In this document: in pieces, positions 46,926 through 64,000 of the stretch
Layout: every line of letters starts with the position of its first letter
Position numbering within the stretch: position 1 is the first letter of the stretch
NCBI GenBank assembly: GCA_013360585.1
Contig: JABWBH010000016.1
Location: forward strand, 9,474 to 73,473
DNA from: Phycisphaerae bacterium
GTDB lineage: Bacteria; Planctomycetota; Phycisphaerae; UBA1845
DNA length: 64,000 nucleotides
Reading direction: 5' to 3'
Program-made: the position numbers and the translations under genes
The notes under the pieces: model-generated
The model's input: only the letters and a program-made list of their open reading frames with translations
The model's database searches: none
Told to the model about the DNA's origin: nothing

Positions 46926-47429
46926 TCAGAACACTTCCTTCGGAACGATGATCCGGATCGGTTGACCGAACGTCTTGCGCCCGGCGGGATCCTCGTACGA
47001 CACGATGAACTCCACTTCCCGCTCCAGCACGTCGTGCGGCGCCCACGACAGACGCATCACGTAATACTGCCCGAGCGTCGTCGGGTGCCGCTTGTGCGGC
47101 AGCGTCCGGGTCGGGGCGCTGAACGTCGTGATTTTCTCCCGCGACACTTCGCCCTGCGCGTCGCGCCCGCGGTAATACATGTCCACGATGAACGTCCCCG
47201 GCACGAGGACGCCGCGGTGCTCGTTCTGAGGAATCAGAAATATCCGGAACTGGATCCCCTCCGGCTTCTCATCGCGCACCGCATCCATGTTCAGCCACGG
47301 ATTCGCGCTGCGCAGGATCGAGACCGTCTGAATCCGCGGACCCCGGTAATTCCGCCCCCCGGACTCGCATCCCGCCGTGCAGAAAACCAGCAATACCAAC
47401 CCCGCCGGAACCGACCGCCGCACCATCAT
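46926..47429 (-). CDS. Lipoprotein translationally coupled to the secretin (pilotin candidate)
   Basis: Lipobox LVFCTAG|C; ATGA overlap with the secretin stop at 47426-47429. Confidence 0.75.
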   Translation of the reverse strand: MMVRRSVPAGLVLLVFCTAGCESGGRNYRGPRIQTVSILRSANPWLNMDAVRDEKPEGIQFRIFLIPQNEHRGVLVPGTFIVDMYYRGRDAQGEVSREKITTFSAPTRTLPHKRHPTTLGQYYVMRLSWAPHDVLEREVEFIVSYEDPAGRKTFGQPIRIIVPKEVF

Positions 47430-50400
47430 GACGAGCCACCGCCCTCGGCCCGCGCGATCTCTGTCTTCTCTGCGTCCTTCTTCACCGGCGGCGATTCCTC
47501 GGCCGGCTTATCCGGCGGCGGCTTCGGACCGTACTTCGTGATCGGCTTCGAAAGGTCCGGTCCGTAACGCCGCGGTTTCGGCCCGTAAAGCTCCCGGTTC
47601 GCAGGCGTCGCACCGTTCCCGTTGCTCGGTCCCGCCGACGGGGCGTTGGGATCCTGCGGACCCATCAGCGCCGCGTCCGGCGTAATCCGCAGCCCCTCCA
47701 TGAAACGGTGCGTCTTCACCCAGTCCGACGCCTCGCCCATGTCCCGCTCGCGCCCCGACATCTGCCGCGCGTCCTGCGGCGTCCGGAGCACCTCCACCGT
47801 CAGCACCACCATCAGCTCCGTCCGCCGGCTCACGTCCGTCGCGGATCGGAACAGCGGACCGAAAAGCGGAAGATCTCCGAAAATCGGAACCTTCGTCTCG
47901 CCGTACTCCTGGCTCGACGTGATCAACCCTCCGAGCACCACCGTCTCCCCGTCCTTCACCGTCACGCTCGATTCCAGCCGCCGCTCGTTGATCACCGGCG
48001 CCCGCAAACCCTCCGTCAGCGTGATCGTCTGATTCGAAAGCTGCGAAATCTCCGCCAGAATATCCATCCGGACGTAGTTGTCCGGCGTAATGTGCGGCGT
48101 CACGTCCAGCTCGATGCCTACATCCTCGTAGTCGAACGACGTCTGCGTCCGGGCGCTCGTGTCTCCCACGTTCGACGTCGTCGGGATCGGAATGCGGTCG
48201 CCGATCCGGATGTTGCCCACCCGGTTGTTCTCCACCACCACCGTCGGCCGCGACAACACTTCCAACCGGCTTTCCGTCTGCAGCGCATGCACCAGGAACC
48301 CGAAATCCTCCCCCGTGATCGTGAACGAGAATCCCGTCCCCGATCCGATGGCCCCGATGTCCGTCCCGATCACGCTATCGAATGCGTCGTTGTCTCCGAT
48401 CACCGTCCCGTTCGGCCCCAGCACCGCCGTCTGGGAGAACTCCAGATCCTGACCCGCGAACTCGATGCCCAGCTCGAGACGATCGTCCAGAATCACCTCC
48501 GCCACCATCACGCTGATCCGCACCTGCGGCTCAGGCCGGTCAAGCTGCTGCACCAGCTCCAGAATCTGCGGCAGCTTCCGCGGACTCGCCCCGATCACCA
48601 GCCCCGCCCCGCGATCCTCCTCATCCGTCCCCCCAATGCTCACCAGCGACACTTTCTTCTCGCTTCGCTGATATGACGAGGTCGATTCCTCCGTGTCCTG
48701 GTACACTTCCTCCTCCTGCTGCAACCAGTCCTGAAGCGCCTGCGACAACTGCTCGGGCTGAAGCGTGTTCGGCCGGTACACGTCGGCCAGCCGCTCCTGC
48801 ACATCCCGCGCATCCAGAATCCGCACCAGCCCCTCCACCATCTGAAGGTCGATCGGCGCCCCCGCCGCCACCACCGTGTTCGTCCGCACGTCCGCCACGA
48901 AGCGCAGCGTCTGCCCCGCCAGCGCCGGAATCCCCTGCGACGGGAAGCCCATCAACTCGAACGTGCTGCGGATGTTCTGCTCCTCCTGATCCCCGGTCGC
49001 GCTGCCTTCCTCATAAAGTTCGCGGAGCATCTCCACGACCGTCTCCGCGTTGCTGTTCCACAGCTCGAACATCCGGATCTCGTTCACCGTCGGGCGGATC
49101 TGGTCGATGCTGCGGATCATCGACTCCAGGGCGTCGATGCTCTTCTCCGGCGCATACACGAAGATCGAGTTCGTCCGCGGATCCGGCGTGAACCGAACGT
49201 CCTGCCGAAGCAGTTTGTGCTCCACGAACGTCCCGTCGTCCCGCTCCTCGCGGAACGTCACCATCACCGCCGACTGCTCGTCCTCGTTCTCCCCGAAGAT
49301 CGCCTCCTGAAGCACCTGCGCGAAGTTCTCCGCCAGCGCCTGCTTGAGCTTCACCACCCGCACGCCCTGGTTCCGCACCGGCAGCGTCGTGTCCAGCTTC
49401 TCGATCATCACCGCCACGTCCTCAAGCTGCGACGACGATGCCCAGACGATCAGCGCGTTGCTCCGAACATCCGGAACCACCGCCACCGCGTCCGGACGCC
49501 CGGAGTCCGCGTCGCCGCCTGACTCCGCGAACAACTGGTCCAGCCCCTCCGCCACGTCTTCCGCCCGCGCGTACTGAAGCGGGAAAATCTCCACCTGCTT
49601 CGCCAGCGACGACTTCTGATCCAGCAGCTTCAGCAGGTCCGACACCACCTTGTGATCATCGCGCGATGCGCTGATCACCAGGCTGTTCGCCCCCTCAAAC
49701 GGCACGATCACCACCGGCGTGCGCTCCGCGCTGTCCCCGCCCCCCTGCGCGCGGTCCTCGAACAACCGCGTCATCTTCGCCGCAAGCGTCACCGCGTTCG
49801 CGTGGATCAGCGCATACGCCTCCAGCACCGCCGTCGTCGGGCCCGACTCCACGTCCAGCTTCGTGATCAGCGTCTCCACCCGCTCCATCGCGTCCTGCGT
49901 CGCCGCCACGATCAGCGAGTTGCTCCGCTCGTCCGAAATGAACGTCGGTTGGTTCTCCTCGCCCATCAACTGCGTCAGCCCGTCGAACAACTCCTCGAAC
50001 TTCGTCTTCATCTGCATCGCATCCGCGAACTTCAGCCCGAAGATGCGGATGCTGTCCACGGCCGACTCCTGCTCCAGGCTCTCGACAAGCTGCTTGATCT
50101 GGGCGAAGTCCTCCGGACCTGCCGCCACGATCAGCGAGTTGCTTCGCGTGTCCGCCACGATCACCGGCTCATCCGGAAACTGCTCCGCTTCCTGAAGGAT
50201 CGCAATCTTCCGCTGCCACAGCTCGACGATCTTTTCCGCCATCGTCTCCGCCGACAGGTGCTTGCACTTGATGATCCCCAGTTGCGTCAGGTTCCGGCTC
50301 GCCGGCACGTCCAGCGACTTCACCAGCTCCGTGATCTCTCCCAGGTTCTCCTCGCTCGCCGACAGAATCAGCGCGTTGTTGTTCACGTCAATCGTCAGGA

Positions 50401-52387
50401 ACACACGCTCCGCCTCTGACGGAATGGATCCGACGGTCTGGCTGTAAGCTTCCAGCCGCTGCTCCAGCATGTCCGTCAGCACCTTGCCGATCCGGATCGC
50501 GTCCCCGTTCTGAAGACGAACCAGCCGGATCGGATACTTGTACCGGTACGGCTTATCCAGCCCCTCCACGATCCGCTTCGCCAGCGCTACCTGCTCCGGA
50601 CGGCCCGCGATCACCAGCGTGTTCGACCGCTGATCCCCCGTCACCGAAAACGCATACGCCAGCGCCTTCGCCTCAGGCTTCCGCGGCACGCCCTCCGGAT
50701 TCGGCTCGCCCGGATCCGGCAGAATTCCCGGTCCGTCGTCGAAAATGCTCGCCAGCCGCTCCTCCAGGTCGTTCGCATCCGCGTACATCAGCGGGATGAT
50801 CTCGACGTCCACATCCTCCGCCAGCGGAACGCTGTCCAGCAGCCGGATCAGCTCCGCGAAGCCCGGAATGTTCTTCTCCACCGTCGCCACGAGGATGCTG
50901 TTGGTCCCCGCGTCCGCGATCAGCTTCACCGTCCGCGACACGTCGATCGGCTTGATCACGTTGATCGTCCCGTCCTTCGGATCGACGATCGACAGGCTCA
51001 ACCGCAAGATCGCCTCATTCGCCGCCTCCGCATCCTCCGGCGAACGCAGCAGCGTCTCCAGCACCGTCCGGAACTCCTCCGCGTTCGAGTGCAGCAGCGG
51101 GAACATCACCAGCTTCAGCTCGCCCCAGTCCTCCTTCGGCGCAACGTCCACCGCGTCGATGATCGCCTGAATCTTCTCCCGCTCCGATTCCGGCGCGAAC
51201 ACCTGGATCGTGTTCGTCGCGTCGATCGCCTTGATCGCCAGCTCCCCGCTCTTCGCCCCGAGCTGCGTGCGGATCTTGCTCAGCATGTCCTGCACCTCGC
51301 GCAGAACGTCGCTCGCCTTGCGGTTCCTGATCTCGAACTCCAGCCACTTTCCCGGAATGCTCGGCGGCAGGGCGTCGATCTTGTCGATGAGCATCAGGAT
51401 CGTCTCAATGTGCTCCGGCAGCGCCGCGACGATCACCACGTTGTCCCCCGCCGGCGTGATCTTGAACTGATCCTGCGTCCGCCCCGTCGGCGCGGGAAAC
51501 ACGTCCCGCAACGCTTCCGTCACGATCCGAGAAACTTCGTCCGAACCCTTGTTTTCGAGCACGACCGGTTCGATCACCTTCGTTTTCTGAAACGCATCGA
51601 GCATGAGGATCAGGGCTTCGAGCTTCTGCACATCCTCCGGATTGCCGCGCAGCACGATGTTCCCGCCGACCACCTCGACCTTCAGGTCCGCGCCCGACAA
51701 CCCGAGATCCATCGAGTTGATGTAGCCCAGAAGCTGATCCCCGGAGAGATTCTTGAAGGGCACGTCGAGTTGCCGCGCCCGCATCGCCGGCGTCTGACCC
51801 TCCGCGGGAACTTCCCGCTCAGGAGGCGCCTGCCCCTCTGCGGCAACGTTGCGATCCGCAGCAGCCTGCTCCACCGCCGCCTCCGCCGCCTGCTCCTGCC
51901 CCGTCATCTCTGAAACGGCCGCCCTGGCCTGCTCTTTGATCGCTGCGCTGTCCGCCTTGCCCTTCGGTTTCCCCGTCTTCGGCGCCGCGCCGGCAGCCTT
52001 GTTCTTCCCCTTCTTGCCCTCAGCCGCTTTTTCACCGGTCGTCGGCGCCTCGCCCGTCGCCGGAGGCTGCGCCGCTCCGCCTTCCCCAGCGCCGGCGTCT
52101 GCCTTTTTTCCCGTCCTGGCGTCGCCCTTCTTGCCGGCCTGCTTATCCGCCTTCGCGTCGCCCTTCTTTTTGTCCTTCTTTCCGCCCTTCTCGGCGTCTC
52201 CCTCGGCGGGCGGCTGCTTCTTCCCCGGCTTCGTCTCCGTCGAAGCCGAAGGCGCCTCCTGCGCCGGCTGAAGCGCGGCGTTCGTTGAAACCCGCCACGG
52301 TCCGCACACACCCGTCGCCAGCCCGGCGGCCGCCGCTACGCGAAGTGTCAATGTGATTGCCGCCCGGTTCATTCGTCTTGAGTTCAT
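47426..52387 (-). CDS. gspD: Giant GspD-type secretin with ~13 secretin-N repeats
   Basis: C-terminal secretin core (QVRISVMVAEV, LSRPTVVV, DVGIELDVTPHI, VKDGETVVLGGLI, KVPIFGDLPLFGPLFRS) preceded by repeated [VIF]-L-x-[YH]A-x-A...D-x-R-[ST]NSLIV...LD units. Confidence 0.9.
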   Translation of the reverse strand: MNSRRMNRAAITLTLRVAAAAGLATGVCGPWRVSTNAALQPAQEAPSASTETKPGKKQPPAEGDAEKGGKKDKKKGDAKADKQAGKKGDARTGKKADAGAGEGGAAQPPATGEAPTTGEKAAEGKKGKNKAAGAAPKTGKPKGKADSAAIKEQARAAVSEMTGQEQAAEAAVEQAAADRNVAAEGQAPPEREVPAEGQTPAMRARQLDVPFKNLSGDQLLGYINSMDLGLSGADLKVEVVGGNIVLRGNPEDVQKLEALILMLDAFQKTKVIEPVVLENKGSDEVSRIVTEALRDVFPAPTGRTQDQFKITPAGDNVVIVAALPEHIETILMLIDKIDALPPSIPGKWLEFEIRNRKASDVLREVQDMLSKIRTQLGAKSGELAIKAIDATNTIQVFAPESEREKIQAIIDAVDVAPKEDWGELKLVMFPLLHSNAEEFRTVLETLLRSPEDAEAANEAILRLSLSIVDPKDGTINVIKPIDVSRTVKLIADAGTNSILVATVEKNIPGFAELIRLLDSVPLAEDVDVEIIPLMYADANDLEERLASIFDDGPGILPDPGEPNPEGVPRKPEAKALAYAFSVTGDQRSNTLVIAGRPEQVALAKRIVEGLDKPYRYKYPIRLVRLQNGDAIRIGKVLTDMLEQRLEAYSQTVGSIPSEAERVFLTIDVNNNALILSASEENLGEITELVKSLDVPASRNLTQLGIIKCKHLSAETMAEKIVELWQRKIAILQEAEQFPDEPVIVADTRSNSLIVAAGPEDFAQIKQLVESLEQESAVDSIRIFGLKFADAMQMKTKFEELFDGLTQLMGEENQPTFISDERSNSLIVAATQDAMERVETLITKLDVESGPTTAVLEAYALIHANAVTLAAKMTRLFEDRAQGGGDSAERTPVVIVPFEGANSLVISASRDDHKVVSDLLKLLDQKSSLAKQVEIFPLQYARAEDVAEGLDQLFAESGGDADSGRPDAVAVVPDVRSNALIVWASSSQLEDVAVMIEKLDTTLPVRNQGVRVVKLKQALAENFAQVLQEAIFGENEDEQSAVMVTFREERDDGTFVEHKLLRQDVRFTPDPRTNSIFVYAPEKSIDALESMIRSIDQIRPTVNEIRMFELWNSNAETVVEMLRELYEEGSATGDQEEQNIRSTFELMGFPSQGIPALAGQTLRFVADVRTNTVVAAGAPIDLQMVEGLVRILDARDVQERLADVYRPNTLQPEQLSQALQDWLQQEEEVYQDTEESTSSYQRSEKKVSLVSIGGTDEEDRGAGLVIGASPRKLPQILELVQQLDRPEPQVRISVMVAEVILDDRLELGIEFAGQDLEFSQTAVLGPNGTVIGDNDAFDSVIGTDIGAIGSGTGFSFTITGEDFGFLVHALQTESRLEVLSRPTVVVENNRVGNIRIGDRIPIPTTSNVGDTSARTQTSFDYEDVGIELDVTPHITPDNYVRMDILAEISQLSNQTITLTEGLRAPVINERRLESSVTVKDGETVVLGGLITSSQEYGETKVPIFGDLPLFGPLFRSATDVSRRTELMVVLTVEVLRTPQDARQMSGRERDMGEASDWVKTHRFMEGLRITPDAALMGPQDPNAPSAGPSNGNGATPANRELYGPKPRRYGPDLSKPITKYGPKPPPDKPAEESPPVKKDAEKTEIARAEGGGSS

Positions 52388-52436
52388 GAGTCCTGCTCGT
52401 CGTATATCCCCGGGATCGAACGCAACCCGACCCCTC

Positions 52437-52484
52437 GCCCTCACCGCCCCGCGCCCTCACTGCCCCGCGCCCTCACCGCCCCGC
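52437..52484. repeat. 3 x 16-bp tandem repeat GCCCTCA[C][C/T]GCCCCGC
   Basis: Units at 52437, 52453 and 52469 (one C>T difference), between the two secretin-family genes. Confidence 0.85.
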
Positions 52485-52652
52485 GCCTGGATCGAACCCC
52501 GCCCCGCTGCCCTTCACGTTGCGCAGCGATGCAAAGGTCAGGAAGCTCTCTTGCTCGTCCGGTCCCCACCGCGCCCCTTCGGAAGCGCCCCGCCTCCCGC
52601 ACCGACGGCCCTGACGCTTATACCCCGACGACCCCCTGCGGACTCGCCGCGC

Positions 52653-55600
52653 CTACCGCCGCCTCCCCGAACCGCTCGAACTGCTCGTGCCCTCATCCTG
52701 CTGTCGCAGCATGTCGATGATCGCCTGCACGTCATCCGCGCTGAGCTTTTTGATCGGGACCAGCCGCGTCTCCTCGCCCCCCGCGGGCCCCCGGCTGGTC
52801 AACTGCGCCACCATCTCCCGCACCTGCGGAAACAGCGAAGGCGCGCCCGTCACAATCAGCGACCGCGTCCGCGCATCCGGCGTGATCGTCACGCTCCCGC
52901 GCGACGTTCCGCCGCTGCGCCCCTGCCCCGATCCCTGAATCCCCTTGTTGATCGCGTCCGAAACCTGCTGCGCCAGCAGACTCACGTTGTATCCCTGCTC
53001 CACGCCGATGATCTCGAACGTCCCCTCCTGATACAGCTCCGAGTCGAGCTGCGCGATGACCCCCGCGATCGTCTCCATCACCTCCGGCTCCGCCACCACC
53101 ACCAGGGCGTTCGCCGAGGTCAGCGCGCTGATTCGCGCCCCGCCCGACAGCGCCTCGCTCGATCCGCCGCGGCTCGGGCTGAAAAAGAACGGGTTGCGGT
53201 TCGATGACCCCGAAGAAGAACCCGGACGTTGCAGGTAACTCTGAAGCGCCGCCTGCGCCTCGTCCACCGCGATGTGCTTGAGCATGAACACGCGGATGTC
53301 CTGCTTCTTCGCAAGATCCACGTCGATCTTCTCAATGATTTCGCTGATCTTCTTGAATTCCTCGTCGTTCGCCCGGATCACCAGATTGTTCGTGCCCGGA
53401 ACCAGCGCCACCACCATCCCGCCGCCCGAATCCGTCTGATCCCAGAAGAAGAACCCCCCGCCGCGCCGGCCGCGCCCGCCCCCGAAGGGATCCGCCCCGC
53501 CGGAGAACAAATCCTGAAGCACCGACTGCACGCCTTCCGGATCAACGTTCTTGATCTCGACCACGCGGATCGGCCGGTCCGCCCCCTCCTCCTTGTCCAG
53601 TTGCGCAACCAGCGACTGCACATCCTTCAACATCCTCGGCGAGGATGCGATGATGACCGAACGCGAACCCATCTCGGGAAACGCAATGACCGTGTCCTGC
53701 GGGTTCTTGCGCCCGCCGGAGGATTGCCCCCCTTGTCCGAAGACGTTCGAGATCGCCTGCGAAACCGCTTGAGGGTCGGCGTAGCTGAGCTTGATCGACG
53801 TGATCGTCCGCCCCGTCGTCACCTCCTCCACGTCCAGCTTCGTCAGCAGCTCCTTCACCCAGTTCATCTCCACCTCGTTGGCGAAGACGATCAGGCTGTT
53901 CGTCCCCAGATCGGGCGCCACGTACATCGGCTGCACCTCGGTCTTCTTCTTCGCCTGCGTGTTCTGGATGAGCTGGCTGAGGTTCTGCGCCACGTCCTGC
54001 GCGTTTGCGTACGTCAGCTTGATCGTCTGCACCGTCCGCTGCGCCGACGACGCCACGTCAAGCTGCGTCAGCAGCATCGCGATCTTGTCGTGGTTCTCCT
54101 TCGACGCCCCGATGATCAGGTTGCTCGGCGGCGTCCACGCGGCCTTGATCGTGTCCTCCGGGCGCTGCTTCCCGCCGCGGGTCTGCGCAAACGCCTGATT
54201 GACCATCGTCACCACGTACTGCGGGTCCAGATACTCCAGCGGGTAGACGCGGATGACGATCCCCGCATCCTCGTTCGCCGGAAGATCAAGCTGCGAAACC
54301 AGCGCCTTCGCTTCCTCGATGTCCTTCGGCGCCCCGCTGATCAGGATCGCGTTCAGCGCCGGAACCGGCGTCACCGTAAGCTGCTGCCCCGGCTGCCGCT
54401 TCTGCACCGCTCCGCTCTTGCCCAGCCCCTGCGTAATCACCTGGGCGAGTTCCTCTGCGTTCGCCTGCTTGAGGAAGATGACCTCCCGCTGCGCCCCCAG
54501 CCCCGTGTCCACGTCCAGCTCCGCGAGAAGCTGCTGGATCCGCTCGTGATTATTCTCGCTTGCCGTCACGATCAGCGACGACGTCGCCGGATCGACGAAC
54601 GCCAGCACGAGATCCCGCGCCGACGTCTGCACCGTCGTCTGCTTCGCCGTCCGGCCCTTGCCCGTGCGCGTTGCCGTCCACTCATCGATGACGCTCTTGA
54701 GCACGTTCGGATCCGCCCACTGCACCGGATACTTCTTCGTCAGAAGCCCCTCCTTCAGCGACGTCTCCTCCGTGTCCAGCATCCCGACGCGCTCCTCGAT
54801 GAACTTGAGGTTGTCCTCGTCCGCCAGCACGAGAAGCTGACGCATGTCCGGGTCCGAACTGATGACCACCGTCGTGCTCATCGCGTCGCCCTTCGCCCCG
54901 ACCGCCTTGAACCCCTCCACGCGCTCGCTGACCAGCGCCCGGATCTTGTCCGCCATCAGGTCCGGATGAACGTGCTTCAGATCGATCACCTTGTACTGAA
55001 GCTGCGGCGGCTGCATCTCCTCCAGCGGATTGATGAAGTTGTTCTTGATCTCCTCCTGCATCTTCTCCGACGCCCGGACGATCACGACGTTCATCGCCTT
55101 GTTCGCCTCGGCCTTGACCTCGACGCCCTTGTCCTTTCGGTCGCCGTAGGTGGAGTTGATGTTCTTCGCCACCTCCTCCGCGTTCGCCCGGACAAGCTGA
55201 TACATCGCCGTCACGACTTTCCCGACCGCCTTGTCCGGCGTGTCCAGGTCGGTCAGCGCCATCTGGATGAACGCGTGCGTCTGCGGACCGCCCAGCACAA
55301 TCAGCGCATTCGTCGCATCATCCGCGTCCACCGCGAACTTCTCGCTGCTTCCGCGGCTGCCCGACCCGCTCTGATACTGCGCCATCATGCCCTTCATCAT
55401 CTCGAGCACGGCGCGGGCGTTGAGGTACTGAAGCTTGAACACCCGGAACTGAAGGTCCGTCACAATGTCCAGCTTCCCGACCAGCGACTCGACCTGCTTG
55501 AACGCCTCCTCATTCGGCGCGGACACGAACAACTTCCGCGTCGCGTCCGACGCCGCCACCGTGATCCGTCCCGCAGCCGTCGACCCGCCCCGACCGCCCC

Positions 55601-58600
55601 CGCGTGCGGAAGACCCCCGGCTGCCCCCGCCGTAAGCGAGGTTCACCGCATCCGCAATCTCGCTGGGAACGCCGAACTTCACGTCGATGATCCGCACCTC
55701 CTGCTGCATGCAGGTCTGCTGGTCGATCCGCTCGATCGTCGCCAGCACTTCCGGCTTGATCGCGTTCGGCACGCTGTAAAAGAGGATCCGCCCGTCGCCG
55801 GTCGCGTAGAACTTCGCCCCCTCCGCCGGGGCGCCGCCACGACCCTTCCCCCCCGAGCCCGCATCGCTGAACATCTGCCCCAGTTGCGTCGCCAGCTCGC
55901 CGCCTTCTGCGCAGTGAAGCTCAATGAACTCGTACTGCGTCCCCTCCGGCGCCACGTCCAGCCGCGCGATGACCTCCTTCACCTCGGTCATCTGCTCCTC
56001 GGTCGCCCGCACCACCACCACGTTCAGCCGCGGATACGGAAGGAACGTCGGCGGAGCGATCGGACTTTGTCCCGACGCCTTCCCGCCCCGCGCGTCGCCC
56101 CCGGAGGCGCCGCGCGCCGTGTCGGCGAAGTGTTGATCCAGCATGCCCGCCACGTCCGTCGCCAGCGAGTTGATCAGCGGAACCCACTCCACCTTCCGCT
56201 CCGGCAGCTCAAAACTCTCCCAGTCCGCAATCAGCGTCCCGATGAAATTCAGCGCCGGCTCGGGCGCCAGCGCAATGATCGTGTTCGCCATCGGATTGCT
56301 GCTGATCCGGATCTGCGCCGGAATGATCTCCGTCCCCGAGACCGGATCGATGATCGGCTTCGGCATCACGCCGCCGTCCGACTCCGCGTCGCGCAGACGC
56401 TCCTCCTGCGATTTCGGTTTCTCATCCAGCCGCAGGAAGTCCCGCAGCTTCTTCTCCACGTCCTCCGCCTGAAGCTTCTTCAACGCAAAGATGCGGAACT
56501 CGCTCTCCACCTCCTGAGGCCGGTCGATCGTCGCAAGCAGCTCCAGGATCGCCGGGTACATCCCCGTCGGCGCGCGGAACACCAGCGTCCGGTCACGCGG
56601 ATTCGCGTAAACCGTGATCTGCGTGGATTGCTGCGCCTGCATCTGCGCCAGCATCTGCTGGTTCGGGTTCTGCTGCTGTCCATCGTCGCCCTGTCCCGGC
56701 TGGCCCGGGCGCCCCGGTTGACCTGACACGCCGCCCGGCAGCCCCGGCGCCGTCCGTCCTGCGTCCTCCTCCTCCCCACGCCCCGAGCGATTGCCGCCTC
56801 CCGCCGCCGCGGCCCGAGCCGCCGCCGCCTGCTGCGCCTGACGCTGCGCCATCTGCTGCATCTGCTGCTGCTGCTGGCGCATCAGGTTCTGCATGTTTCG
56901 CGACCCCGCCCCGAACATCTCCTCGATGATGTCCTTCGCCAGCACCGGGTCAATGTACTTCACCCGGTAAACGCGGATGTCCGGCTTCGTCGAAGGCTGC
57001 TCCTTCGCCAGCTCCGTCACCATCTCCTCGACGGCCGTCACATCCTCGTACGAGCCTTCGACCACCAGCGTGTTCGTGATCGGATCCCAGATCAGCGAGA
57101 CTTTCTCGAGTTCGCCTTCGCCCGTCTCACGGCCCACGCCCGTCTGCCGCGGAACAAAGAGAATCCGCGACTCGCCTTCGGGTTCAACCGACGGCGGAGG
57201 CGACGCAGAAGCTCGCGGCGCGGGCATGCCCGGCAGCGGATCGTCCCCCGTCACCACCGGAACGTCTCCGTCCCGGATGTCCGTCGGCGGCTCCTCCGAC
57301 GTCATCCCGCCTTCCCCGACGGTCGCGGCGTCCTCGACGGATTCCGCCGCCCCCTCATCCTCTCCGCGAGACCGGCGATCGTCTTTCTTCTCTGCTCGGC
57401 TGTCGCTTTTCTTCGCGGCTTTTTCCTTCGGCGCGGGCTCAGCCGGCTCGGCCTCTTTCTTCTTCTTGTTCTTCTTGCCCCCGGACTCCGGAGGGGCTTC
57501 TTGAGTAAACGCCGTCAGGATCAAGCTCGCCGACCGCCCCGCCGACAACGACGACGGCAGCACGCACCCCCCACCGGTCTTCCCCGCCTCGTTCGTCGAA
57601 GACGCGCCGCCCGCGCCGTTCGTGCCCCCGCTCCGGCGCGGCTGAACCTTCTCCACACCGTAATCGTCCAGCACGTCCTGATTCGCCTGCGGCGCGAGCT
57701 TCTTCGTGATCTCGCGCCCGTCGATGTTGATCCGCTCCGCAACCGACTCCACCGGAACGTTGATCGGCACCGGGATGACCCGCCGCGTCGGAACATCCTT
57801 CTCCCCCGGCTTGTCCACCACCGCGAAAACGATCTTCTGAATCTCCTGCAACACCGACAGCCGCGGATGCTTCACCGTCAGCGTGTTCAGATCCTCGTCG
57901 TAGCTGATCGCCGGGTCGTCCTCCCACATCCCCGTCACGTAGGTGTCGAGCGCAAGATACGCATCCCAGGCGTCCGCGTACGAAAGCTCATAAATCAACG
58001 TGTAAGGCTCGAGCGGTTTGGTCAGCGGACTGTCGCCTTCGCCCGGGGCGGGGTCGAGCTTCGCCAGCAGACTGTCGATCTCCTCCAGCTTCGCCGCCGA
58101 GGTCACGATCAGGATCGTCCTCGCGTAGTAGTCCGCCTGAAGATACAGGTCGCGCCCCTGATACGTCCGCGTGCTCTCCCACTCCGGTTCCGACGACGGC
58201 CCGAAGAGCGCGTCCAAGCTGTCCTCGTCGCTCTTCTTGCTGGAGGGTTTCGGCTGCGGCGCCGGAGCCTGCGAGCGTCCGCCGCGCGGCTGTGCGCCAC
58301 TCGCCTGCGGCGCGTCGATCACGTTGATGATCAGATCGACGAGTTGCTTCGGCTCGGCCTCGTTGATGTGATAGAGCTTGACCTGCTGCCCGACCAGCGC
58401 CTGCTTGTCCAGATCCTCGATCCACTTCTGCGCCTGATCGAGTTCCGCCACCGTCCCGTGCATGACCACCGCGTGTCCGCCCGGCGCTTCGGCGATGTAA
58501 AACTGCCCCGCGCCGCCCGGCGACCCGCCGCCACCCCGACCGGGACGCGGACCCGGACCGCCGCCCCCACCCTGCTCATTGCGGATCATCGCCGAAATCG

Positions 58601-61600
58601 CGGTCGCAATTTGCTCCGGCTGGGCTTTTTTCAATGCCACGTGGCGCATCGCCCGTACCGACGCCTCAGCCCCCTTGAGATGCTCGATCATCTCCTCGAT
58701 CTTCGGGAAATGCGCCCGATCCGCGATGACGATCAGCTTGCTCGTCGCCGCCTGCGGAATGAACTGCGGACCGATCGCCCTGGCCCCACCCGGAGCCGGC
58801 GGACGCCCGCCGCGCGACGAGGACGGTCCCGTCGATTCCAACCCGACGAGCGACGGCATCACCTGACCGAGCTGCTCCGCCATCGCCGTCACGTCCGTCC
58901 CCGTCGGGTACGTGTACACCCGCGTCTCCGTCCCCTCCTCGGGCGGAACGTCGAACTGATGCACGACCTCCTCGATCTTCGTCATCACCACCGCCGACGC
59001 CTTCACCAGCAGACGCTTGTCCAGCGGAAAGAGCGTCGCGCCGGCCGAGGCTTGCGCCCCCGGCCGACCCGTCGGGCGGGGGCTCCGCTGAGGCCCCTCG
59101 CCTCCCATGTTCATCGCGCCGGACGATCCCTGAAGCACCATCGCTTCCACAATGCTGATGATCGTCTGCGGATCCGCATACTGAAGCGTGAACGTCCGCT
59201 CGATCTGGTCCGACGGTTGATCCAGCACGCCGACCAGATCGCGGATCTGCTGCAACTCCGCAGCGCCCGCTCCGAACACGAGGATGCCCCCGTCGGTCGC
59301 CAGCAGCTTGCGCGAAGACCCCGACGGCGAGGCGTTGTTCCCGCGCTGCGGACCGGTCGGCGCGCCGCCGAGGAACCCGTTGATGCGCTCGATCGCCTCG
59401 TTCGGATCCAGATGCGACAGCGCGATCCGCGTGAACGAGTTCGCCCCGTCGTCCACGTCAAGCTGCTCGATCAGCGCCGCATATCGCTCCCACTCCCGAT
59501 CCGAACAAAGCACATAAAGCCGACCGTTCTCGTCGTCCGGCGTGAATTTCCCCGCCGACGGACGCGCGCCGCCGCGCGGTGGATTGCCCCCGGTCGGACG
59601 CGGCGCCGCCGCGCCCTCGGACGAGTCATACGTCTGAAGCAACGCCACGATCCACGACGGCGTCTTGTGCCGAATCTCCGCGATGTGCAGCGTCGCGTCC
59701 CCGGGCGTCGGCTGGTCGAACATCGCCGCCAGCTCCCTCACCCGCGCCACGCCCTCCTCGCTGCCCACCACGACGAGCTGATTCCAGTCCGTCATCGGAA
59801 GAATCACCACCCCGTGTGATGACCCCGCGCTCGACCGCGTCTGCGACGGACGACCCGGCGTCGGACGCGGCGGAGCAGCCTCGGCGGCCTTGCCCGACTC
59901 CGCGTCCAGAATGCTCTCGATCGTCTGCGCCAGATCGTCCGCGTTCGCGTGCTCAACCGGAATCACGACCGGAACACGCTTCGACTCCTCCGCCTCAACG
60001 TCGAGATCCGACAGAAACCTGCGGAATTCCTCGATCCGGATCGGAAGTGCGTACGCCTGAACTTCCTTCCGCTCATCGTTGGGAATGAAGATCGACTCCG
60101 GCTCGTCCCCCACCGCGATGCTCAGTCCGTCGCCGCCCGAGCGCGACGGCGCGTTCGCCGCCCCGCCCGTCGGCCGCGCCGGAGGCGTCGGCGTCCGCGG
60201 TGCGGACTTCCCGCCCGGCTTCTGCATGAACCGCTCGATCGTCTCCACCGCCTGCGACGGCAAAATGTGCTGACAGGCGATCCGCTGGAACTCCCGCCGG
60301 TCCTTGATGTCGATCAGAAACCGCTCCGCCATCGTCAGGTACTTGTTGATGTCGCTGACCTTGGCGTAAATCCCGATGACGTTCGATCCCTCCTGCACCG
60401 GCGCAATGCGCGCATAATCCGGCACGAAGCTGCGCAGCAGATCGAGGTTCGCCGCAGACCCGGCCGGAAGCTCGTACTGAACGTACACCAGCTCGTCGTC
60501 GTGCGGACGCGCAGCGCGGAACTCCGCCACGCTCGTGAACATGTGCTCTTCCGGCATCTGACGCCAGTAATCGTTGACGCTCAGCACGACGAGATACTCG
60601 CCGTCTCGCACGATCGTCCGACGGTTCAGAACGTCCGCCTGCCAGATCGCCGTCTTCACGCGCCGGAACGCCTCTTCCCACGTCATCTCCTTGTCAGCCG
60701 GCGCGGCGTAGTACGCGTTCCCCTTCGGAATCTCTCCCGTCGGCGTCAGACCCGACTGACGGCCGAACTCAATCAGCAGATCTTCGTACGTCCCCTGCAC
60801 GCTGATCACGCCGTAGGTTCTGTCCGCGGCGTCCACCCGATCCCGACCCGGGTCAGACCGCGCGGATCCGGTGCGCGAGCTGGACGCAGTCGGCGTTCGC
60901 GCACCCGTCTCACCGTCAGGACCAGCCTGCGGCGCATTGTTCTCACCTTTCAGGACCGGCGCCTTCTCACTAACGCCAGGCTCCTCGGGGTCAGCCGGAG
61001 GGACCGGACGGGACTGCGTGCTGGACTTGCTGACGGCGTCGCCCCCGGACGGCAGCGGAGGATCATCCACCGTCGTAATCGGGCCTTGCGGCCGGGATCC
61101 GGATGTCGGCTTCTTCACCGGCGGCGCGGATCCGCCCGAACCCGACTTCACTTCAGGCTGGATCTCCGGCTTCATCGGGTCGACCCCGGGAAGCTCGGGC
61201 GACTTCGACTTGTCCGTCTCCCCCCCCGGAGCTTTGACGGTGGAATCACCCGAAGGCGCGCCTCCCGACGGCGGCGTCAACCGCCCCGGCTGCACGCGTT
61301 CAGCCTGAGGAGCTCCGGTCCCCGTCTTCTCGCTCGAAGTGTCCGCCGGTCTGCCGGGCAACGAGACCTTCCCAGCGGAGGCGCCACCGGGCGTCGACAG
61401 TTTTGACTCGCCGGGCTTCGCATCCCCGGGCTTCATCGCGCCGGACTTGTCCCCAGGTTTTGCGTTCACGTCCGCGGGTTTGCCCGCGCCCTTCGGTTCA
61501 GCCCCGGAATCGCCCTTGCCAGCAGGTTTACCCTTTTCGCCGCCCGTCGCGCTCTCGTCGGAGTTGTCCGCCTTCTTCGCGGCCTTCTTATCCTTCTTCT

Positions 61601-61778
61601 TTTTCTTCTTCCCGCCGGACTTGTCCTTCTCGCCGCCGGCGTTCTTGTCCGTCTTCTTCTCTGCCGGAGGCTGCGCAGGCGCGCCGCCCTCCTGCGCAAG
61701 GACCGGTCCCGCCGCCAGCGCCAGCATCAATGCCGGAATGATGATCCTAAGCCAGTTCTGAGAATATCCGACCGTCAT
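52653..61778 (-). CDS. Giant (~3,040 aa) secretin N-domain repeat protein lacking a secretin core
   Basis: Signal peptide (IIIPALMLALAAGPVLA-Q), disordered N-terminus, N0-like segment, then ~27 N-type repeats counted by eye. Ends ...DDVQAIIDMLRQQDEGTSSSSGSGRRR with no secretin core motif. Confidence 0.88.
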   Translation of the reverse strand: MTVGYSQNWLRIIIPALMLALAAGPVLAQEGGAPAQPPAEKKTDKNAGGEKDKSGGKKKKKKDKKAAKKADNSDESATGGEKGKPAGKGDSGAEPKGAGKPADVNAKPGDKSGAMKPGDAKPGESKLSTPGGASAGKVSLPGRPADTSSEKTGTGAPQAERVQPGRLTPPSGGAPSGDSTVKAPGGETDKSKSPELPGVDPMKPEIQPEVKSGSGGSAPPVKKPTSGSRPQGPITTVDDPPLPSGGDAVSKSSTQSRPVPPADPEEPGVSEKAPVLKGENNAPQAGPDGETGARTPTASSSRTGSARSDPGRDRVDAADRTYGVISVQGTYEDLLIEFGRQSGLTPTGEIPKGNAYYAAPADKEMTWEEAFRRVKTAIWQADVLNRRTIVRDGEYLVVLSVNDYWRQMPEEHMFTSVAEFRAARPHDDELVYVQYELPAGSAANLDLLRSFVPDYARIAPVQEGSNVIGIYAKVSDINKYLTMAERFLIDIKDRREFQRIACQHILPSQAVETIERFMQKPGGKSAPRTPTPPARPTGGAANAPSRSGGDGLSIAVGDEPESIFIPNDERKEVQAYALPIRIEEFRRFLSDLDVEAEESKRVPVVIPVEHANADDLAQTIESILDAESGKAAEAAPPRPTPGRPSQTRSSAGSSHGVVILPMTDWNQLVVVGSEEGVARVRELAAMFDQPTPGDATLHIAEIRHKTPSWIVALLQTYDSSEGAAAPRPTGGNPPRGGARPSAGKFTPDDENGRLYVLCSDREWERYAALIEQLDVDDGANSFTRIALSHLDPNEAIERINGFLGGAPTGPQRGNNASPSGSSRKLLATDGGILVFGAGAAELQQIRDLVGVLDQPSDQIERTFTLQYADPQTIISIVEAMVLQGSSGAMNMGGEGPQRSPRPTGRPGAQASAGATLFPLDKRLLVKASAVVMTKIEEVVHQFDVPPEEGTETRVYTYPTGTDVTAMAEQLGQVMPSLVGLESTGPSSSRGGRPPAPGGARAIGPQFIPQAATSKLIVIADRAHFPKIEEMIEHLKGAEASVRAMRHVALKKAQPEQIATAISAMIRNEQGGGGGPGPRPGRGGGGSPGGAGQFYIAEAPGGHAVVMHGTVAELDQAQKWIEDLDKQALVGQQVKLYHINEAEPKQLVDLIINVIDAPQASGAQPRGGRSQAPAPQPKPSSKKSDEDSLDALFGPSSEPEWESTRTYQGRDLYLQADYYARTILIVTSAAKLEEIDSLLAKLDPAPGEGDSPLTKPLEPYTLIYELSYADAWDAYLALDTYVTGMWEDDPAISYDEDLNTLTVKHPRLSVLQEIQKIVFAVVDKPGEKDVPTRRVIPVPINVPVESVAERINIDGREITKKLAPQANQDVLDDYGVEKVQPRRSGGTNGAGGASSTNEAGKTGGGCVLPSSLSAGRSASLILTAFTQEAPPESGGKKNKKKKEAEPAEPAPKEKAAKKSDSRAEKKDDRRSRGEDEGAAESVEDAATVGEGGMTSEEPPTDIRDGDVPVVTGDDPLPGMPAPRASASPPPSVEPEGESRILFVPRQTGVGRETGEGELEKVSLIWDPITNTLVVEGSYEDVTAVEEMVTELAKEQPSTKPDIRVYRVKYIDPVLAKDIIEEMFGAGSRNMQNLMRQQQQQMQQMAQRQAQQAAAARAAAAGGGNRSGRGEEEDAGRTAPGLPGGVSGQPGRPGQPGQGDDGQQQNPNQQMLAQMQAQQSTQITVYANPRDRTLVFRAPTGMYPAILELLATIDRPQEVESEFRIFALKKLQAEDVEKKLRDFLRLDEKPKSQEERLRDAESDGGVMPKPIIDPVSGTEIIPAQIRISSNPMANTIIALAPEPALNFIGTLIADWESFELPERKVEWVPLINSLATDVAGMLDQHFADTARGASGGDARGGKASGQSPIAPPTFLPYPRLNVVVVRATEEQMTEVKEVIARLDVAPEGTQYEFIELHCAEGGELATQLGQMFSDAGSGGKGRGGAPAEGAKFYATGDGRILFYSVPNAIKPEVLATIERIDQQTCMQQEVRIIDVKFGVPSEIADAVNLAYGGGSRGSSARGGGRGGSTAAGRITVAASDATRKLFVSAPNEEAFKQVESLVGKLDIVTDLQFRVFKLQYLNARAVLEMMKGMMAQYQSGSGSRGSSEKFAVDADDATNALIVLGGPQTHAFIQMALTDLDTPDKAVGKVVTAMYQLVRANAEEVAKNINSTYGDRKDKGVEVKAEANKAMNVVIVRASEKMQEEIKNNFINPLEEMQPPQLQYKVIDLKHVHPDLMADKIRALVSERVEGFKAVGAKGDAMSTTVVISSDPDMRQLLVLADEDNLKFIEERVGMLDTEETSLKEGLLTKKYPVQWADPNVLKSVIDEWTATRTGKGRTAKQTTVQTSARDLVLAFVDPATSSLIVTASENNHERIQQLLAELDVDTGLGAQREVIFLKQANAEELAQVITQGLGKSGAVQKRQPGQQLTVTPVPALNAILISGAPKDIEEAKALVSQLDLPANEDAGIVIRVYPLEYLDPQYVVTMVNQAFAQTRGGKQRPEDTIKAAWTPPSNLIIGASKENHDKIAMLLTQLDVASSAQRTVQTIKLTYANAQDVAQNLSQLIQNTQAKKKTEVQPMYVAPDLGTNSLIVFANEVEMNWVKELLTKLDVEEVTTGRTITSIKLSYADPQAVSQAISNVFGQGGQSSGGRKNPQDTVIAFPEMGSRSVIIASSPRMLKDVQSLVAQLDKEEGADRPIRVVEIKNVDPEGVQSVLQDLFSGGADPFGGGRGRRGGGFFFWDQTDSGGGMVVALVPGTNNLVIRANDEEFKKISEIIEKIDVDLAKKQDIRVFMLKHIAVDEAQAALQSYLQRPGSSSGSSNRNPFFFSPSRGGSSEALSGGARISALTSANALVVVAEPEVMETIAGVIAQLDSELYQEGTFEIIGVEQGYNVSLLAQQVSDAINKGIQGSGQGRSGGTSRGSVTITPDARTRSLIVTGAPSLFPQVREMVAQLTSRGPAGGEETRLVPIKKLSADDVQAIIDMLRQQDEGTSSSSGSGRRR

Positions 61779-62067
61779 GATGCACGATCTCCTGATGAGC
61801 AATCCTTCGTCGCTGCGCCTTCCCTGACGACGCTCGCGGCCTTATTCCAGTCCGCACCGGCGCATGCCGCAACCGCTTCTAGTTGTTCTCTGTCTGGTGT
61901 CCTCAGTTACAGGTTCGTTGCATCAATACGGATCGCAGACCTCCGGTCCGCACGGGCCCGCCAGAACTCCTCGCTCTCCTTCAAGCGCAACAACCTACAA
62001 CCCACCTCACTAAAGCTTCGTCGTTATCTCACACATCTCACGGCGCCCGCTCGCCCTCATTGCGTCC

Positions 62068-63537: not shown

Positions 63538-64000
63538 TCACCTTCCGGACCCCGCCGCATCCCCCTCGTCGCTTTTCTTGCCGGAATCCTTGCCTTCCGC
63601 CGGCGTCTCCGCACCCGGATCTCGCGCCTCGTCCGTCGAACCCGCACCGGAATCCGGAGCAGAGATCGGTTTCCCCGTTGCATCCGTCCGAACACCCGAC
63701 GCCGGTTTCTTTTCCGCTCCGCCGGACGACGAAGTTCTCGGCGGAGGCGTTCCGCGCGTCGAAACCGGCGGCCGACCTGTCGTCGGAACGCGCCCCGGAG
63801 GCGACGCCGTCGGGCGACCGCCCGCTTCCTTCGCTTCATCAGGCCCCGTCTTCGCCGCCCCGTCGCCGGGCTGAACCTCTGTCCCCCCGGTCTCAGGGAT
63901 GGGCGGAGCGTCTGCATCCGGTTTCGCCACCGGTTTCAACGTCGAGGACGCGTCTCGCGGTTCAGTAACGGCGGTATTCGGCTTGTCCTCGTTGTCGGAC
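63538..64000 (-). CDS. C-terminal Pro/Ala/Gly-rich tail of an upstream gene (runs off window; probably same T2SS/T4P-like operon)
   Basis: Frame open to the window end; co-oriented, with its stop 45 bp before the next gene's start. Confidence 0.55.
   Translation of the reverse strand, partial: SDNEDKPNTAVTEPRDASSTLKPVAKPDADAPPIPETGGTEVQPGDGAAKTGPDEAKEAGGRPTASPPGRVPTTGRPPVSTRGTPPPRTSSSGGAEKKPASGVRTDATGKPISAPDSGAGSTDEARDPGAETPAEGKDSGKKSDEGDAAGSGR

Follow-up and report, generated by a model that had tools for sequence, protein, structure and literature searches.

The genes for P0002 and P0001 close a type II secretion operon in a 64,000-nucleotide stretch of DNA from a Phycisphaerae bacterium, here called the window, and their products together probably make up a single giant type II secretin, in which half domains would join the chains 1:1 and the whole would act as a long periplasmic conduit or spacer. 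What is new here lies at the gene boundary: as read from alignments with the repeats, the first half of an N domain closes the coreless protein P0002, and a second half opens the pore-bearing protein P0001. The assignment of P0002 as the inner-membrane-proximal two thirds of a two-part secretin is largely supported by comparison with its relatives (coordinates in Table 1).

Table 1. Features of the two-part secretin and of the adjoining genes, in window positions.
Feature	Positions	Strand	Extent	Content or basis
P0002, coreless giant protein	52653..61778	minus	3041 aa	from likely ATG at 61778
P0002 signal peptide	61695..61778	minus	residues 9-36 of printed translation	read from sequence
P0002 N0/N1-like head	60288..60830	minus	residues 325-505	fold match and alignment
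P0002 repeat block 1	58053..60281	minus	residues 508-1250	8 Secretin_N repeats, own repeat HMM
P0002 linker 1	57159..58052	minus	residues 1251-1548	divergent domain, then half repeat, then low-complexity Lys-rich stretch
P0002 repeat block 2	52800..57158	minus	residues 1549-3001	18 Secretin_N repeats, own repeat HMM
P0002 C-terminal half N domain	52671..52766	minus	residues about 3013-3044	beta1-alpha1, HMM positions 2-32
Intergenic spacer	52388..52652		265 bp	between P0002 and P0001; G-rich, three copies of a ~16-nt unit
P0001, GspD-type secretin	47426..52387	minus	1653 aa	from likely ATG at 52387
P0001 signal peptide region	52265..52387	minus	residues about 20-60 of printed translation	read from sequence; Kyte-Doolittle 1.64
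P0001 N-terminal half N domain	51587..51718	minus	residues about 243-286	beta2-beta3-alpha2, HMM positions 39-66
P0001 full Secretin_N repeats	48539..51541	minus	residues 302-1302	12 repeats, own HMM
P0001 pore domain	47741..48388	minus	residues 1353-1568	own profile
P0052, bitopic inner-membrane protein	62068..63492	minus		TM helix, coiled coil, PilO/GspM-like domain, beta domain (about 255-345), disordered tail
PilM_2/GspL-like gene, 3' part	63538..64000	minus	part of 689 aa	extends past window
P0053, lipoprotein	46926..47429	minus	167 aa	lipobox ending TAGC, by eye; start overlaps secretin stop

An earlier note, made from the sequence alone, had described P0002 as a signal peptide, an N0-like segment and about 27 repeats with no secretin core, and each part of that description is borne out. 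The open reading frame (52653-61802, minus strand) encodes 3049 aa when read from an upstream TTG start at 61802; the hydrophobic stretch of its signal peptide has a Kyte-Doolittle value of 2.31, and a hydrophobicity scan of P0002 revealed no other hydrophobic segment of membrane-spanning length. By our own repeat HMM, built iteratively from the repeats of P0001 and P0002, the protein contains 26 complete repeats and, at its C-terminus, a half repeat, and the match that follows linker 1 begins at model position 26. The note had also proposed a Pfam scan with PF03958 and PF00263 as a check: the sole family to match P0002 is Secretin_N (E 5.5e-162, 16 stretches above cut-off), and the PF00263 core gives no match in it at E<=0.01. 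A family pore-domain profile scores -1.3 bits in P0002 versus 313 bits in P0001, and in 26 coreless homologues it reaches 3.7 bits at best. P0002 itself is a Secretin_N-only partner and not a secretin; its score of 511 bits against the GspD model TIGR02517 comes solely from model positions 131-334, which cover N domains. Coreless proteins make up 19 of its 49 homology matches, while the other 30 carry both repeats and core, 29 of them with 30-56 repeats.

The head of P0002 yielded no family in a Pfam scan of that region alone and nothing in a sequence search of the PDB, and a comparison of folds was needed. An AlphaFold2 model of residues 325-535, made from alignment A1 of 17 sequences, reached a pLDDT of 83.6, and its top Foldseek match in the PDB is the N0-N1-N2 region of XcpQ (5ngi, E 1.9e-7), followed by GspD (3ezj), PulD (6hcg), the GspC-GspD complex (3oss) and PilQ N0 (4ar0). 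In 17 relatives outside the split set, namely 15 pore-bearing proteins and the coreless P0020 and P0026, the N-terminal region is homologous to this head, and a profile of the head has zero match in P0001. A division of the pair into three homologous modules, each headed by a relic signal peptide, was considered and rejected: the N-termini and the internal linker of P0002 share low complexity only, and the linker stretch that aligns with both true N-termini falls below the hydrophobicity threshold.

P0001, with an open reading frame at 47426-52444 (minus strand) of 1672 aa from a GTG start, exceeds the cut-off of the NCBIfam GspD equivalog TIGR02517 (517.3 bits vs 351.35) and falls below that of the PilQ model TIGR02515 (277.8 vs 284.35 bits); its closest solved relatives are the 15-mers of type II secretion system (T2SS) GspD (6i1x, E 2.4e-38). 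The signal peptide, the roughly 13 repeats and the core that had been ascribed to it were all recovered. The own HMM finds 13 repeats, the first of which is a half domain followed by 12 full copies, Pfam detects Secretin_N in 10 stretches, and PF00263 matches residues 1387-1553, or window positions 47786-48286 (E 3.7e-47, 160.5 bits vs a cut-off of 27.5). Unlike GspD, P0001 has no N0 at its mature N-terminus and starts with the half N domain.

Comparison with the repeats shows the gene boundary to fall within the alpha1-beta2 loop of what would be a single N domain, each protein keeping one half. Beyond its half domain, P0002 runs through a Ser-rich stretch and ends in RRR. Aligned by hhalign to the repeat alignment, this tail half takes up the first 22 columns (probability 90.2%, E 1.5e-6) and the head half of P0001 the last 31 (probability 95.7%, E 1e-8). 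These matches are short (22-31 aligned columns), and single HMM scores are low, at 5-24 bits for a database size of 1. The tail half is kept in all 19 aligned homologues and is found at E<=1e-3 in 34 of 37 full-size coreless ORFs, three being without it. With a dedicated 44-column HMM, the 44-aa head-half element is seen ahead of the first full repeat in 37/37 downstream ORFs, whereas the general repeat HMM, at >=5 bits, misses the short element and recovers it in just 11 of the 37. The halves are complementary in all eight pairs compared, the tail matching the opening half of the repeat model and the head of the secretin its remaining half. A complex prediction with P0001 residues 225-440 (alignment A2) and P0002 residues 2838-3049 (alignment A3) scored 0.01, which allows no call either way.

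It might be argued that the split results from an artefact or from gene decay, be it a misassembly, a frameshift in sequencing or a pseudogene. Nothing was found in favour of this, although 4 of 41 related ORFs stop early and some of those loci contain N, and its chance is negligible. As the earlier note had stated, the genes lie 265 bp apart, from the end of the P0002 stop at 52653 to the P0001 ATG at 52387, and both frames are intact, over 9.1 and 5.0 kb. Positions 51900-53200 show 0 differences and 0 gaps in contigs of three public runs from three studies, some of which may be the source of this DNA. More telling, other genera retain the split, and in many genera a stop is followed by a spacer and then by a new start whose product has a hydrophobic N-terminus. 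A 405-nt contig from an RNA library crosses the spacer, and no terminator-like site was found within it.

The survey of fused versus split forms that the earlier note had called for separates the families of the order. Within the family of the window, all seven fetched loci are split, with a coreless ORF of 2601-3240 aa (22-30 repeats) located 47-237 bp upstream of a secretin of 1649-1842 aa (13-15 repeats), and 37 related loci from metagenome-assembled genomes (MAGs) are split as well; in two other families of the order, f2 and f3, each of the five fetched loci has a single ORF, 4410-4648 aa long and comprising 33-39 repeats. Of the 201 genomes sampled in the class, at least 46 have an open frame of >=3000 aa that includes a secretin core, among them 9/9 genomes of f2 and 7/7 of f3, whereas the frames listed for eight of the nine other genomes of the window's family measure 1253-1949 aa. 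Among 56 MAG loci, 37 head-bearing ORFs end 2216-3027 aa past the head, and at none of the 56 does the head-bearing ORF include a core. A hydrophobic N-terminal stretch lies within the 70 residues printed for seven of nine split secretins and in the first 60 residues of 31 of the 37 downstream ORFs. The two other split secretins are unclear in this respect: L022, and L015, for which the ORF call began at an upstream start.

The single-chain secretins of the sister families, at 3900-5030 aa, are collinear with the pair of P0002 and P0001 and share with it the head, the repeat blocks, the linkers, the core and the flanking genes; five that were read through hold 33-39 repeats. Because these single collinear relatives have about the summed length and repeat number of the pair, the two proteins are best understood as parts of one secretin. 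In databases, the single-chain giants are named 'secretin N-terminal domain-containing protein' or 'type II secretion system protein D'. The same two N-domain halves border a low-complexity loop of 200-540 aa in the fused relatives: among 15 of them with this linker, the first half is found at its start in 12, the second at its end in 10, and both in 9. A signal-peptide-like stretch, with basic residues, a hydrophobic core and AxA-type sites (such as AVAQT), is conserved in that loop. The nine split secretins form one clade among the fused ones (SH-aLRT 92), in a tree from a quick search whose outgroup sits on very long branches and in which the order of three sub-clades is not settled. Tree and taxon distribution would favour one fission, and the signal-like stretches of the fused loops could equally be relics of a fusion.

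These observations also bear on whether P0002 acts apart from the secretin, for example as a periplasmic scaffold or assembly factor, with its adjacency a legacy of descent from a fused gene. The two are indeed separate polypeptides, each with its own signal peptide, but such a role is very improbable: adjacency is strictly kept with the same partner architecture, the orphan half domain is conserved at both sides of the boundary, the machine needs an N0 head that the pore protein does not have, and the three other secretins of this genome are short and located elsewhere, none adjoining the P0002 gene.

The genes at 62-64 kb, earlier taken for an inner-membrane platform, fit that description. 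P0052 has no match in a PDB sequence search and none in Pfam, and its model (pLDDT 64) resembles PilO in Foldseek (3jc8_Oa, E 4.7e-6; 5uvr; 2rjz), in keeping with a PilO/GspM-like fold. For its residues 256-346, the Atlas structure rows give XpsN (TM 0.65) and T2SSC (TM 0.58) from a low-confidence model, and a GspC-HR/XpsN-like C-terminal domain may be taken as a lead only. In six of seven split loci, the gene immediately upstream of the giant one encodes a P0052 homologue. Beyond P0052 comes the PilM_2/GspL-like gene, with GspK next on the contig. In a relative, the operon runs E, F, G, three pseudopilins, K, L-like, P0052-like, giant and secretin; in the window's own genome, contig C28 carries K (C-terminal part), L-like and P0052, as well as the top GspE match (C28:4279-5952), and the end of contig C36 carries F, G, pseudopilins and K (N-terminal part). 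On the other side, a P0053 homologue directly follows the secretin in 7/7 split and 4/5 fused loci. P0053 belongs to no Pfam family, and the Atlas returned unnamed Planctomycetota clusters only, with an Ig-like fold as a lead; it is a candidate pilotin or accessory protein.

In known T2SS, N0 is the domain that meets the inner-membrane platform. Since an N0-type head occurs on the coreless protein only, within a T2SS operon and next to the fold of P0052, the order would be platform, coreless protein, pore protein and outer membrane. Both proteins would be exported by Sec, after which the C-terminal beta1-alpha1 of P0002 and the N-terminal beta2-beta3-alpha2 of P0001 are predicted to co-fold into one N domain that couples the chains 1:1. 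This docking by split-domain complementation is proposed because complementary half domains stand on either side of the boundary and the same halves flank the fused loop. Upon oligomerization, 15-fold in solved GspD, about 40 N domains per protomer would lie between the P0052/GspL platform and the outer-membrane pore, giving the pseudopilus and its cargo a very long conduit in the periplasm or, at a minimum, a spacer; the lipoprotein P0053 may aid pore assembly. The earlier idea of a coreless protein docked under the secretin is thus upheld in that the two appear to make one secretin, with collinear fused relatives, but docking is probably not simple ring-on-ring stacking, because the boundary halves one N domain.

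As to how the repeats are arranged in such a machine, a continuous tube about ten times the usual length would be one possibility. The N domains might instead form a flexible, extensible tether or cage, 'beads on a string' with no continuous ring stack, that keeps pore and inner-membrane platform linked as the width of the periplasm varies. Such an arrangement would suit the long low-complexity loops and linkers in and between the repeats, the long disordered N-terminal regions of both proteins, the hinge-like flexibility and unresolved links between rings described for Thermus PilQ in the excerpts of PMC5745081, and the variable invagination of the planctomycete inner membrane noted in those of PMC5394234. 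A smooth continuous tube also sits awkwardly with the loops of 200-540 aa in fused relatives and the 298-aa linker inside P0002, and a conduit of >100 nm would demand a pseudopilus far longer than in studied T2SS. Against the tether, N1-N3 form rings in every solved secretin listed among the relatives of P0001, the repeats being homologous to such ring-forming domains, and repeat number is steady at 33-45 per system across genera (fused 33-39; split 36-45, summed per pair), a conservation that suggests a defined length. The observations are compatible with tether and tube alike; the tether is rated rather unlikely, and the two-part secretin with a long conduit or spacer remains the preferred reading.

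A bolder proposal is that the giant secretins of this clade are inherently multi-part machines: two polypeptides would together rebuild an N domain, and this coupling would assemble a trans-periplasmic stack of about 40 rings and >100 nm. Fused chains would then also be cut or separately initiated, as the signal-peptide-like stretch conserved in the same loop would imply, and assembly from two or three pieces joined through split domains would be general. The stack could then underlie envelope-spanning structures seen in Planctomycetota. This is doubtful. The giant secretin is a speculative candidate for the envelope-spanning complexes of this phylum, and a link of it to crateriform structures is speculation. 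According to the excerpts of Boedeker et al. (2017, PMC5394234), crateriform structures sit where the inner membrane is close to the wall, a placement that fits poorly with a bridge to a distant membrane.

A secretin family with 30-56 N domains per chain is common across the whole class, and it would be by far the longest secretin known. The literature searched, largely open-access, contained no description of giant secretins, fused or split, nor of many-N-domain secretins in Planctomycetota. Such proteins raise the questions of how a pseudopilus-driven machine works across a wide and variable periplasm and how a subunit of 4500 aa is exported and assembled. The natural split points to N-domain stacks that can be built from separate polypeptides and predicts a defined interface at which two half domains, each about 30-45 residues long, would meet; in addition, the two split proteins are smaller than the fused giants and more readily expressed.

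Secretins studied so far have 3 to 6 rings in the periplasm. The T2SS GspD proteins (PulD, XcpQ, ExeD) resemble the pair in the pore, which is closest to GspD 15-mers, in the N0-N1-type head and Secretin_N repeats, and in an operon with GspF, G, K, L-like and M-like genes and minor pseudopilins. However, GspD consists of N0 and three N domains in one chain of ~650 aa, whereas the pair amounts to about 40 domains and ~4700 aa over two chains. N0 belongs to one protein of the pair and the pore to the other, and the gene boundary runs through one N domain. The single-chain giants of Phycisphaerae and other Planctomycetota are homologous and collinear, and differ in being one polypeptide where the window's family has two genes. 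As excerpted from eLife 2017 (PMC5745081), PilQ of the Thermus thermophilus type IV pilus, a 757-aa chain with six rings (N0-N5) and a length of 350 A, is among the largest characterised secretins and uses added N-domain rings to lengthen the secretin across a wide periplasm, as the pair may do; the system described here has about seven times the domains, a T2SS-type operon and two chains. The Tad proteins RcpC and RcpA, likened here by their description in the excerpted text of Nat Commun 2025 (PMC12307814), pair a secretin, as is proposed here, with a separate oligomeric periplasmic conduit that is docked to it and linked to the inner membrane, but RcpC carries a transmembrane helix of its own as an anchor, while in P0002 the signal peptide is the only hydrophobic segment of membrane-spanning length.

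Two long open reading frames (ORFs) on the minus strand, encoding a giant Secretin_N-repeat protein (P0002) and a pore-bearing secretin of the GspD type (P0001), fill 47426-61802; measured from the ATG starts, 265 bp separate them, as had been noted earlier. In P0002, Pfam detects Secretin_N only (E 5.5e-162, 16 stretches passing), and in P0001 it detects 10 Secretin_N stretches together with the secretin pore domain, or core, at residues 1387-1553. P0001 lies above the NCBIfam cut-off for GspD (517 bits vs 351) and below that for PilQ (277.8 vs 284.35). A repeat HMM, iterated from the repeats of both proteins, matches 26 full N domains (β1-α1-β2-β3-α2) in P0002 and 13 repeats, beginning with a half domain, in P0001. 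The family pore-domain profile, which scores 313 bits in P0001, finds no pore domain in P0002 (-1.3 bits) and peaks at 3.7 bits among 26 coreless homologues. The earlier note had described a secretin in two parts with a core in the smaller protein only, and this architecture is borne out by Pfam and the repeat HMM nearly to the exact numbers. At the start of both proteins, a hydrophobic signal-peptide-like stretch is followed by a long low-complexity region.

Table. Coordinates of the two secretin genes, the adjoining lipoprotein gene and the repeat regions of P0002
Feature	Position	Strand	Description
P0002	52653-61802; likely ATG 61778	-	ORF, 3049 aa
P0001	47426-52444; likely ATG 52387	-	ORF, 1672 aa
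P0053	46926-47429		lipoprotein gene
P0002 repeat block 1	residues 508-1250		8 repeats (repeat HMM)
P0002 repeat block 2	residues 1549-3001		18 repeats (repeat HMM)
P0002 C-terminal half repeat	residues 3015-3044		repeat HMM

Residues 325-535 of P0002 constitute a head that is conserved in all coreless homologues. Its AlphaFold2 model (pLDDT 83.6) finds its best Foldseek match in N0-N1-N2 of XcpQ (5ngi, E 1.9e-7), with further matches to N0-N1-N2 of GspD (3ezj) and PulD (6hcg), the GspC-GspD complex (3oss) and PilQ N0 (4ar0); the TM-scores are low, about 0.3, because domain orientations differ. Since the best match is to N0-N1-N2 of known secretins, the 'N0-like segment' previously read in P0002 stands.

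An assembly error joining the two ORFs had also been considered, and the boundary proved not to be an artefact: over 51900-53200, contigs of three runs from three studies show 0 differences and 0 gaps, some of these runs possibly being source DNA. A 405-nt RNA-library contig reads across the spacer, a finding that fits co-transcription without proving it, and no terminator-like site was found between P0002 and P0001. The G-rich spacer contains, at 52440-52500, about three tandem copies of a ~16-nt unit.

A protein search with P0002 residues 320-1300 yielded 49 proteins, which were classed by our own HMMs. Repeats and core occur together in 30 of them, 29 being 3927-5277 aa long with 30-56 repeats; the other 19 are coreless, namely 17 of 2074-3195 aa with 18-29 repeats, one partial sequence, and P0020, which at 4982 aa contains 52 repeats but lacks a pore domain. 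Either the coreless part can reach far greater length in some lineages or P0020 is an incomplete record. Across the class searched, the pore domain occurs in 200 of 201 genomes, and in at least 46 of the 201, counted among the 150 matches listed (with 735 further matches), it lies in an open frame of 3000-6169 aa. Among the matches listed, core-bearing frames are 3905-5029 aa long in two sister families of the same order (9/9 genomes of f2, 7/7 of f3) and 1253-1949 aa in eight of the nine other genomes of the window's family, f1. Families f14, f21 and f6 show, among the same listed matches, core-bearing frames of 2381-2602 aa; frames of such length (~2400-2600 aa) may reflect a split at a different linker or genes truncated by contig ends.

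A survey of fused and split forms, which the earlier note had put forward, found two genes in all seven fetched f1 loci, where a coreless ORF of 2601-3240 aa with 22-30 repeats stands upstream of a secretin of 1649-1842 aa with 13-15 repeats and the core, the gap being 47-237 bp; each of the five f2/f3 loci fetched carries just one ORF, 4410-4648 aa long, which encodes 33-39 repeats and the core. One locus of family f4, cut by the contig end, has the same appearance as the split loci. In a quick maximum-likelihood tree (C-terminal 640 residues, 46 rows; P0026, P0037 and L028 left out), the 9 split secretins come out as a single clade (SH-aLRT 92), which groups with the fused clades of f2 and f3. 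One change of state between split and fused suffices on this tree, in which very long branches lead to the outgroup and the branching order of the three sub-clades is not settled.

Scanning the head alignment against species-representative genomes gave 56 loci, 54 of them in uncultured MAGs titled Phycisphaerae, Phycisphaerales, Phycisphaeraceae or Planctomycetota; the two exceptions are titled Alphaproteobacteria (L073), probably a binning or labelling slip, and only 'uncultured bacterium' (L077). None of the 56 head-bearing ORFs contains a core. Fifteen run off the available DNA and 41 reach a stop, which lies 2216-3027 aa after the head in 37 and 371-1691 aa after it in four (L055, which contains N, L063, L081 and L082), where assembly problems or further splits may be responsible. 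In 17 relatives outside the split set (15 with a pore domain, the other two being the coreless P0020 and the partial P0026) the N-terminal region is homologous to the P0002 head, which has no match in P0001. The two proteins taken together are thus collinear with the single-chain giants. On sequence comparison, P0002 corresponds to the N-terminal two thirds of such giants and P0001 to the C-terminal third.

All coreless proteins share a C-terminal tail, seen in 19 of 19 aligned sequences, in which a GPxGG motif is followed by a strand and a helix, then by a Ser/Gly/Arg-rich segment and basic final residues. For eight of eight pairs the tail matches the opening half of the repeat model (β1-α1, from positions about 1-7 to 28-35), and the first structured element of the partner secretin matches the second half (β2-β3-α2), always ending at positions 65-66 and starting at 25-45 in seven pairs and at 14 in the eighth. 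With a dedicated 44-column HMM, the secretin half was found in 37 of 37 downstream ORFs, always ahead of the first full repeat; at E≤1e-3, 34 of 37 coreless ORFs show the tail half in their C-terminal 60 residues. In profile-profile comparison the secretin half aligns with the final 31 columns of the repeat alignment (probability 95.7%, E 1e-8) and the tail half with the initial 22 (probability 90.2%, E 1.5e-6).

Of 19 fused relatives in the same clade, 15 carry a linker of 186-544 aa located 10-14 repeats ahead of the core, with a first-half match at its start in 12 of the 15, a second-half match at its end in 10 and both in 9, so the 'linker' is a very large insert within the α1-β2 loop of a single N domain. 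As placed by these matches, the stop codon, spacer and putative new signal peptide of the window's family lie inside that loop. Many ordinary repeats contain smaller insertions, with envelopes of up to 108 aa vs the 66-position model, and the internal linker of P0002, residues 1251-1548, looks like the same kind of loop insertion because the next match starts at model position 26. In this linker (window 57159-58052), as in the relatives L023, L026 and P0023, which is the first long one and comes after 7-8 repeats, a recurring Cys-Val-Leu-Pro motif precedes a hydrophobic stretch.

Of the clade's 19 fused proteins, 13 have a hydrophobic stretch (Kyte-Doolittle ≥1.5 over 15 residues) in the loop at the split position. 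Basic residues often come before it and AxA-type sites after it, and in position it aligns with the secretin signal peptide of the split family. These signal-peptide-like stretches were noted among L024, L025, L026, L027 and P0022-P0040, in the loop that lies 10-14 repeats ahead of the pore domain. Fused giants of other clades have no linker of ≥150 aa at this position (0/15), and their short gaps hold three hydrophobic stretches, located elsewhere. The loop stretch may be a relic of fusion, a pre-adaptation enabling fission, or a cleavage or internal initiation site in the 'fused' proteins.

Upstream of P0002, on the same strand, lie three genes, encoding an inner-membrane protein (P0052, 487 aa), beyond it a PilM_2/GspL-like protein of 689 aa, and a GspK fragment at the contig end. 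The end of another contig of this genome, C36, encodes GspF, GspG, three pseudopilins and the N-terminal part of GspK; it joins the end of the window's contig, C28, inside gspK. The best GspE match falls outside the window, upstream of it at C28:4279-5952 and separated from the secretin genes by ~65 kb. In a family member with a longer contig, the full order is GspE-F-G-three pseudopilins-K-L-like-P0052-like-coreless-secretin. P0052 has no Pfam family, and its model (pLDDT 64) comprises a transmembrane helix, a coiled coil and a PilO/GspM-like domain matching 3jc8_Oa (E 4.7e-6), 5uvr and 2rjz. The Atlas's own model of its C-terminal β domain matches XpsN (TM 0.65) and the GspC homology region (TM 0.58), and a possible likeness to XpsN/GspC is taken as a lead only. 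P0053, a 167-aa lipoprotein of no named family, is encoded directly downstream of P0001, overlapping the secretin stop, a position kept in seven of seven split and four of five fused loci; the Atlas suggests an Ig-like β-sandwich, in Planctomycetota only. Three other, short secretins are encoded elsewhere (contigs C66, C13 and C10; open frames of 569, 625 and 1085 aa), and the genome therefore runs at least four secretin systems.

The analysis establishes homology and collinearity, N0 and pore on different chains, complementary half domains and a T2SS context. P0002 and P0001 would both be exported, and the two half domains would fold in trans into one N domain, linking every P0002 chain with one of P0001. 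By analogy with known systems, in which GspD N0 meets the GspC homology region (PMC3169554, in excerpt), the N0 head would meet the P0052/GspL platform. The oligomer would be a very long periplasmic structure: because the Thermus PilQ complex has six rings and a cap in 350 Å (PMC5745081, available portion), about 40 rings of PilQ-like height would, by rough extrapolation, exceed 100 nm if each domain forms a ring. Long loops and the need for a very long pseudopilus argue against a smooth tube, as does the location of Planctopirus crateriform structures, which, according to an extract of PMC5394234, occur at sites where inner membrane and wall lie close together. A single complex prediction for P0002 with P0001 gave no answer.

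The secretin core, the N0 and N domains and the T2SS operon are of known kinds. However, giant secretins have 30-56 N domains, vs 3-6 in known secretins, and this scale, the division of one secretin between two genes and a gene boundary cutting through a domain all depart from any secretin found described. In databases the giants carry automatic names, and no description of them was found in the literature searched, which covered few subscription journals. RcpC-RcpA of the Tad pilus, as described in part of PMC12307814, offers a precedent for a separate protein acting as a periplasmic conduit beneath a secretin.
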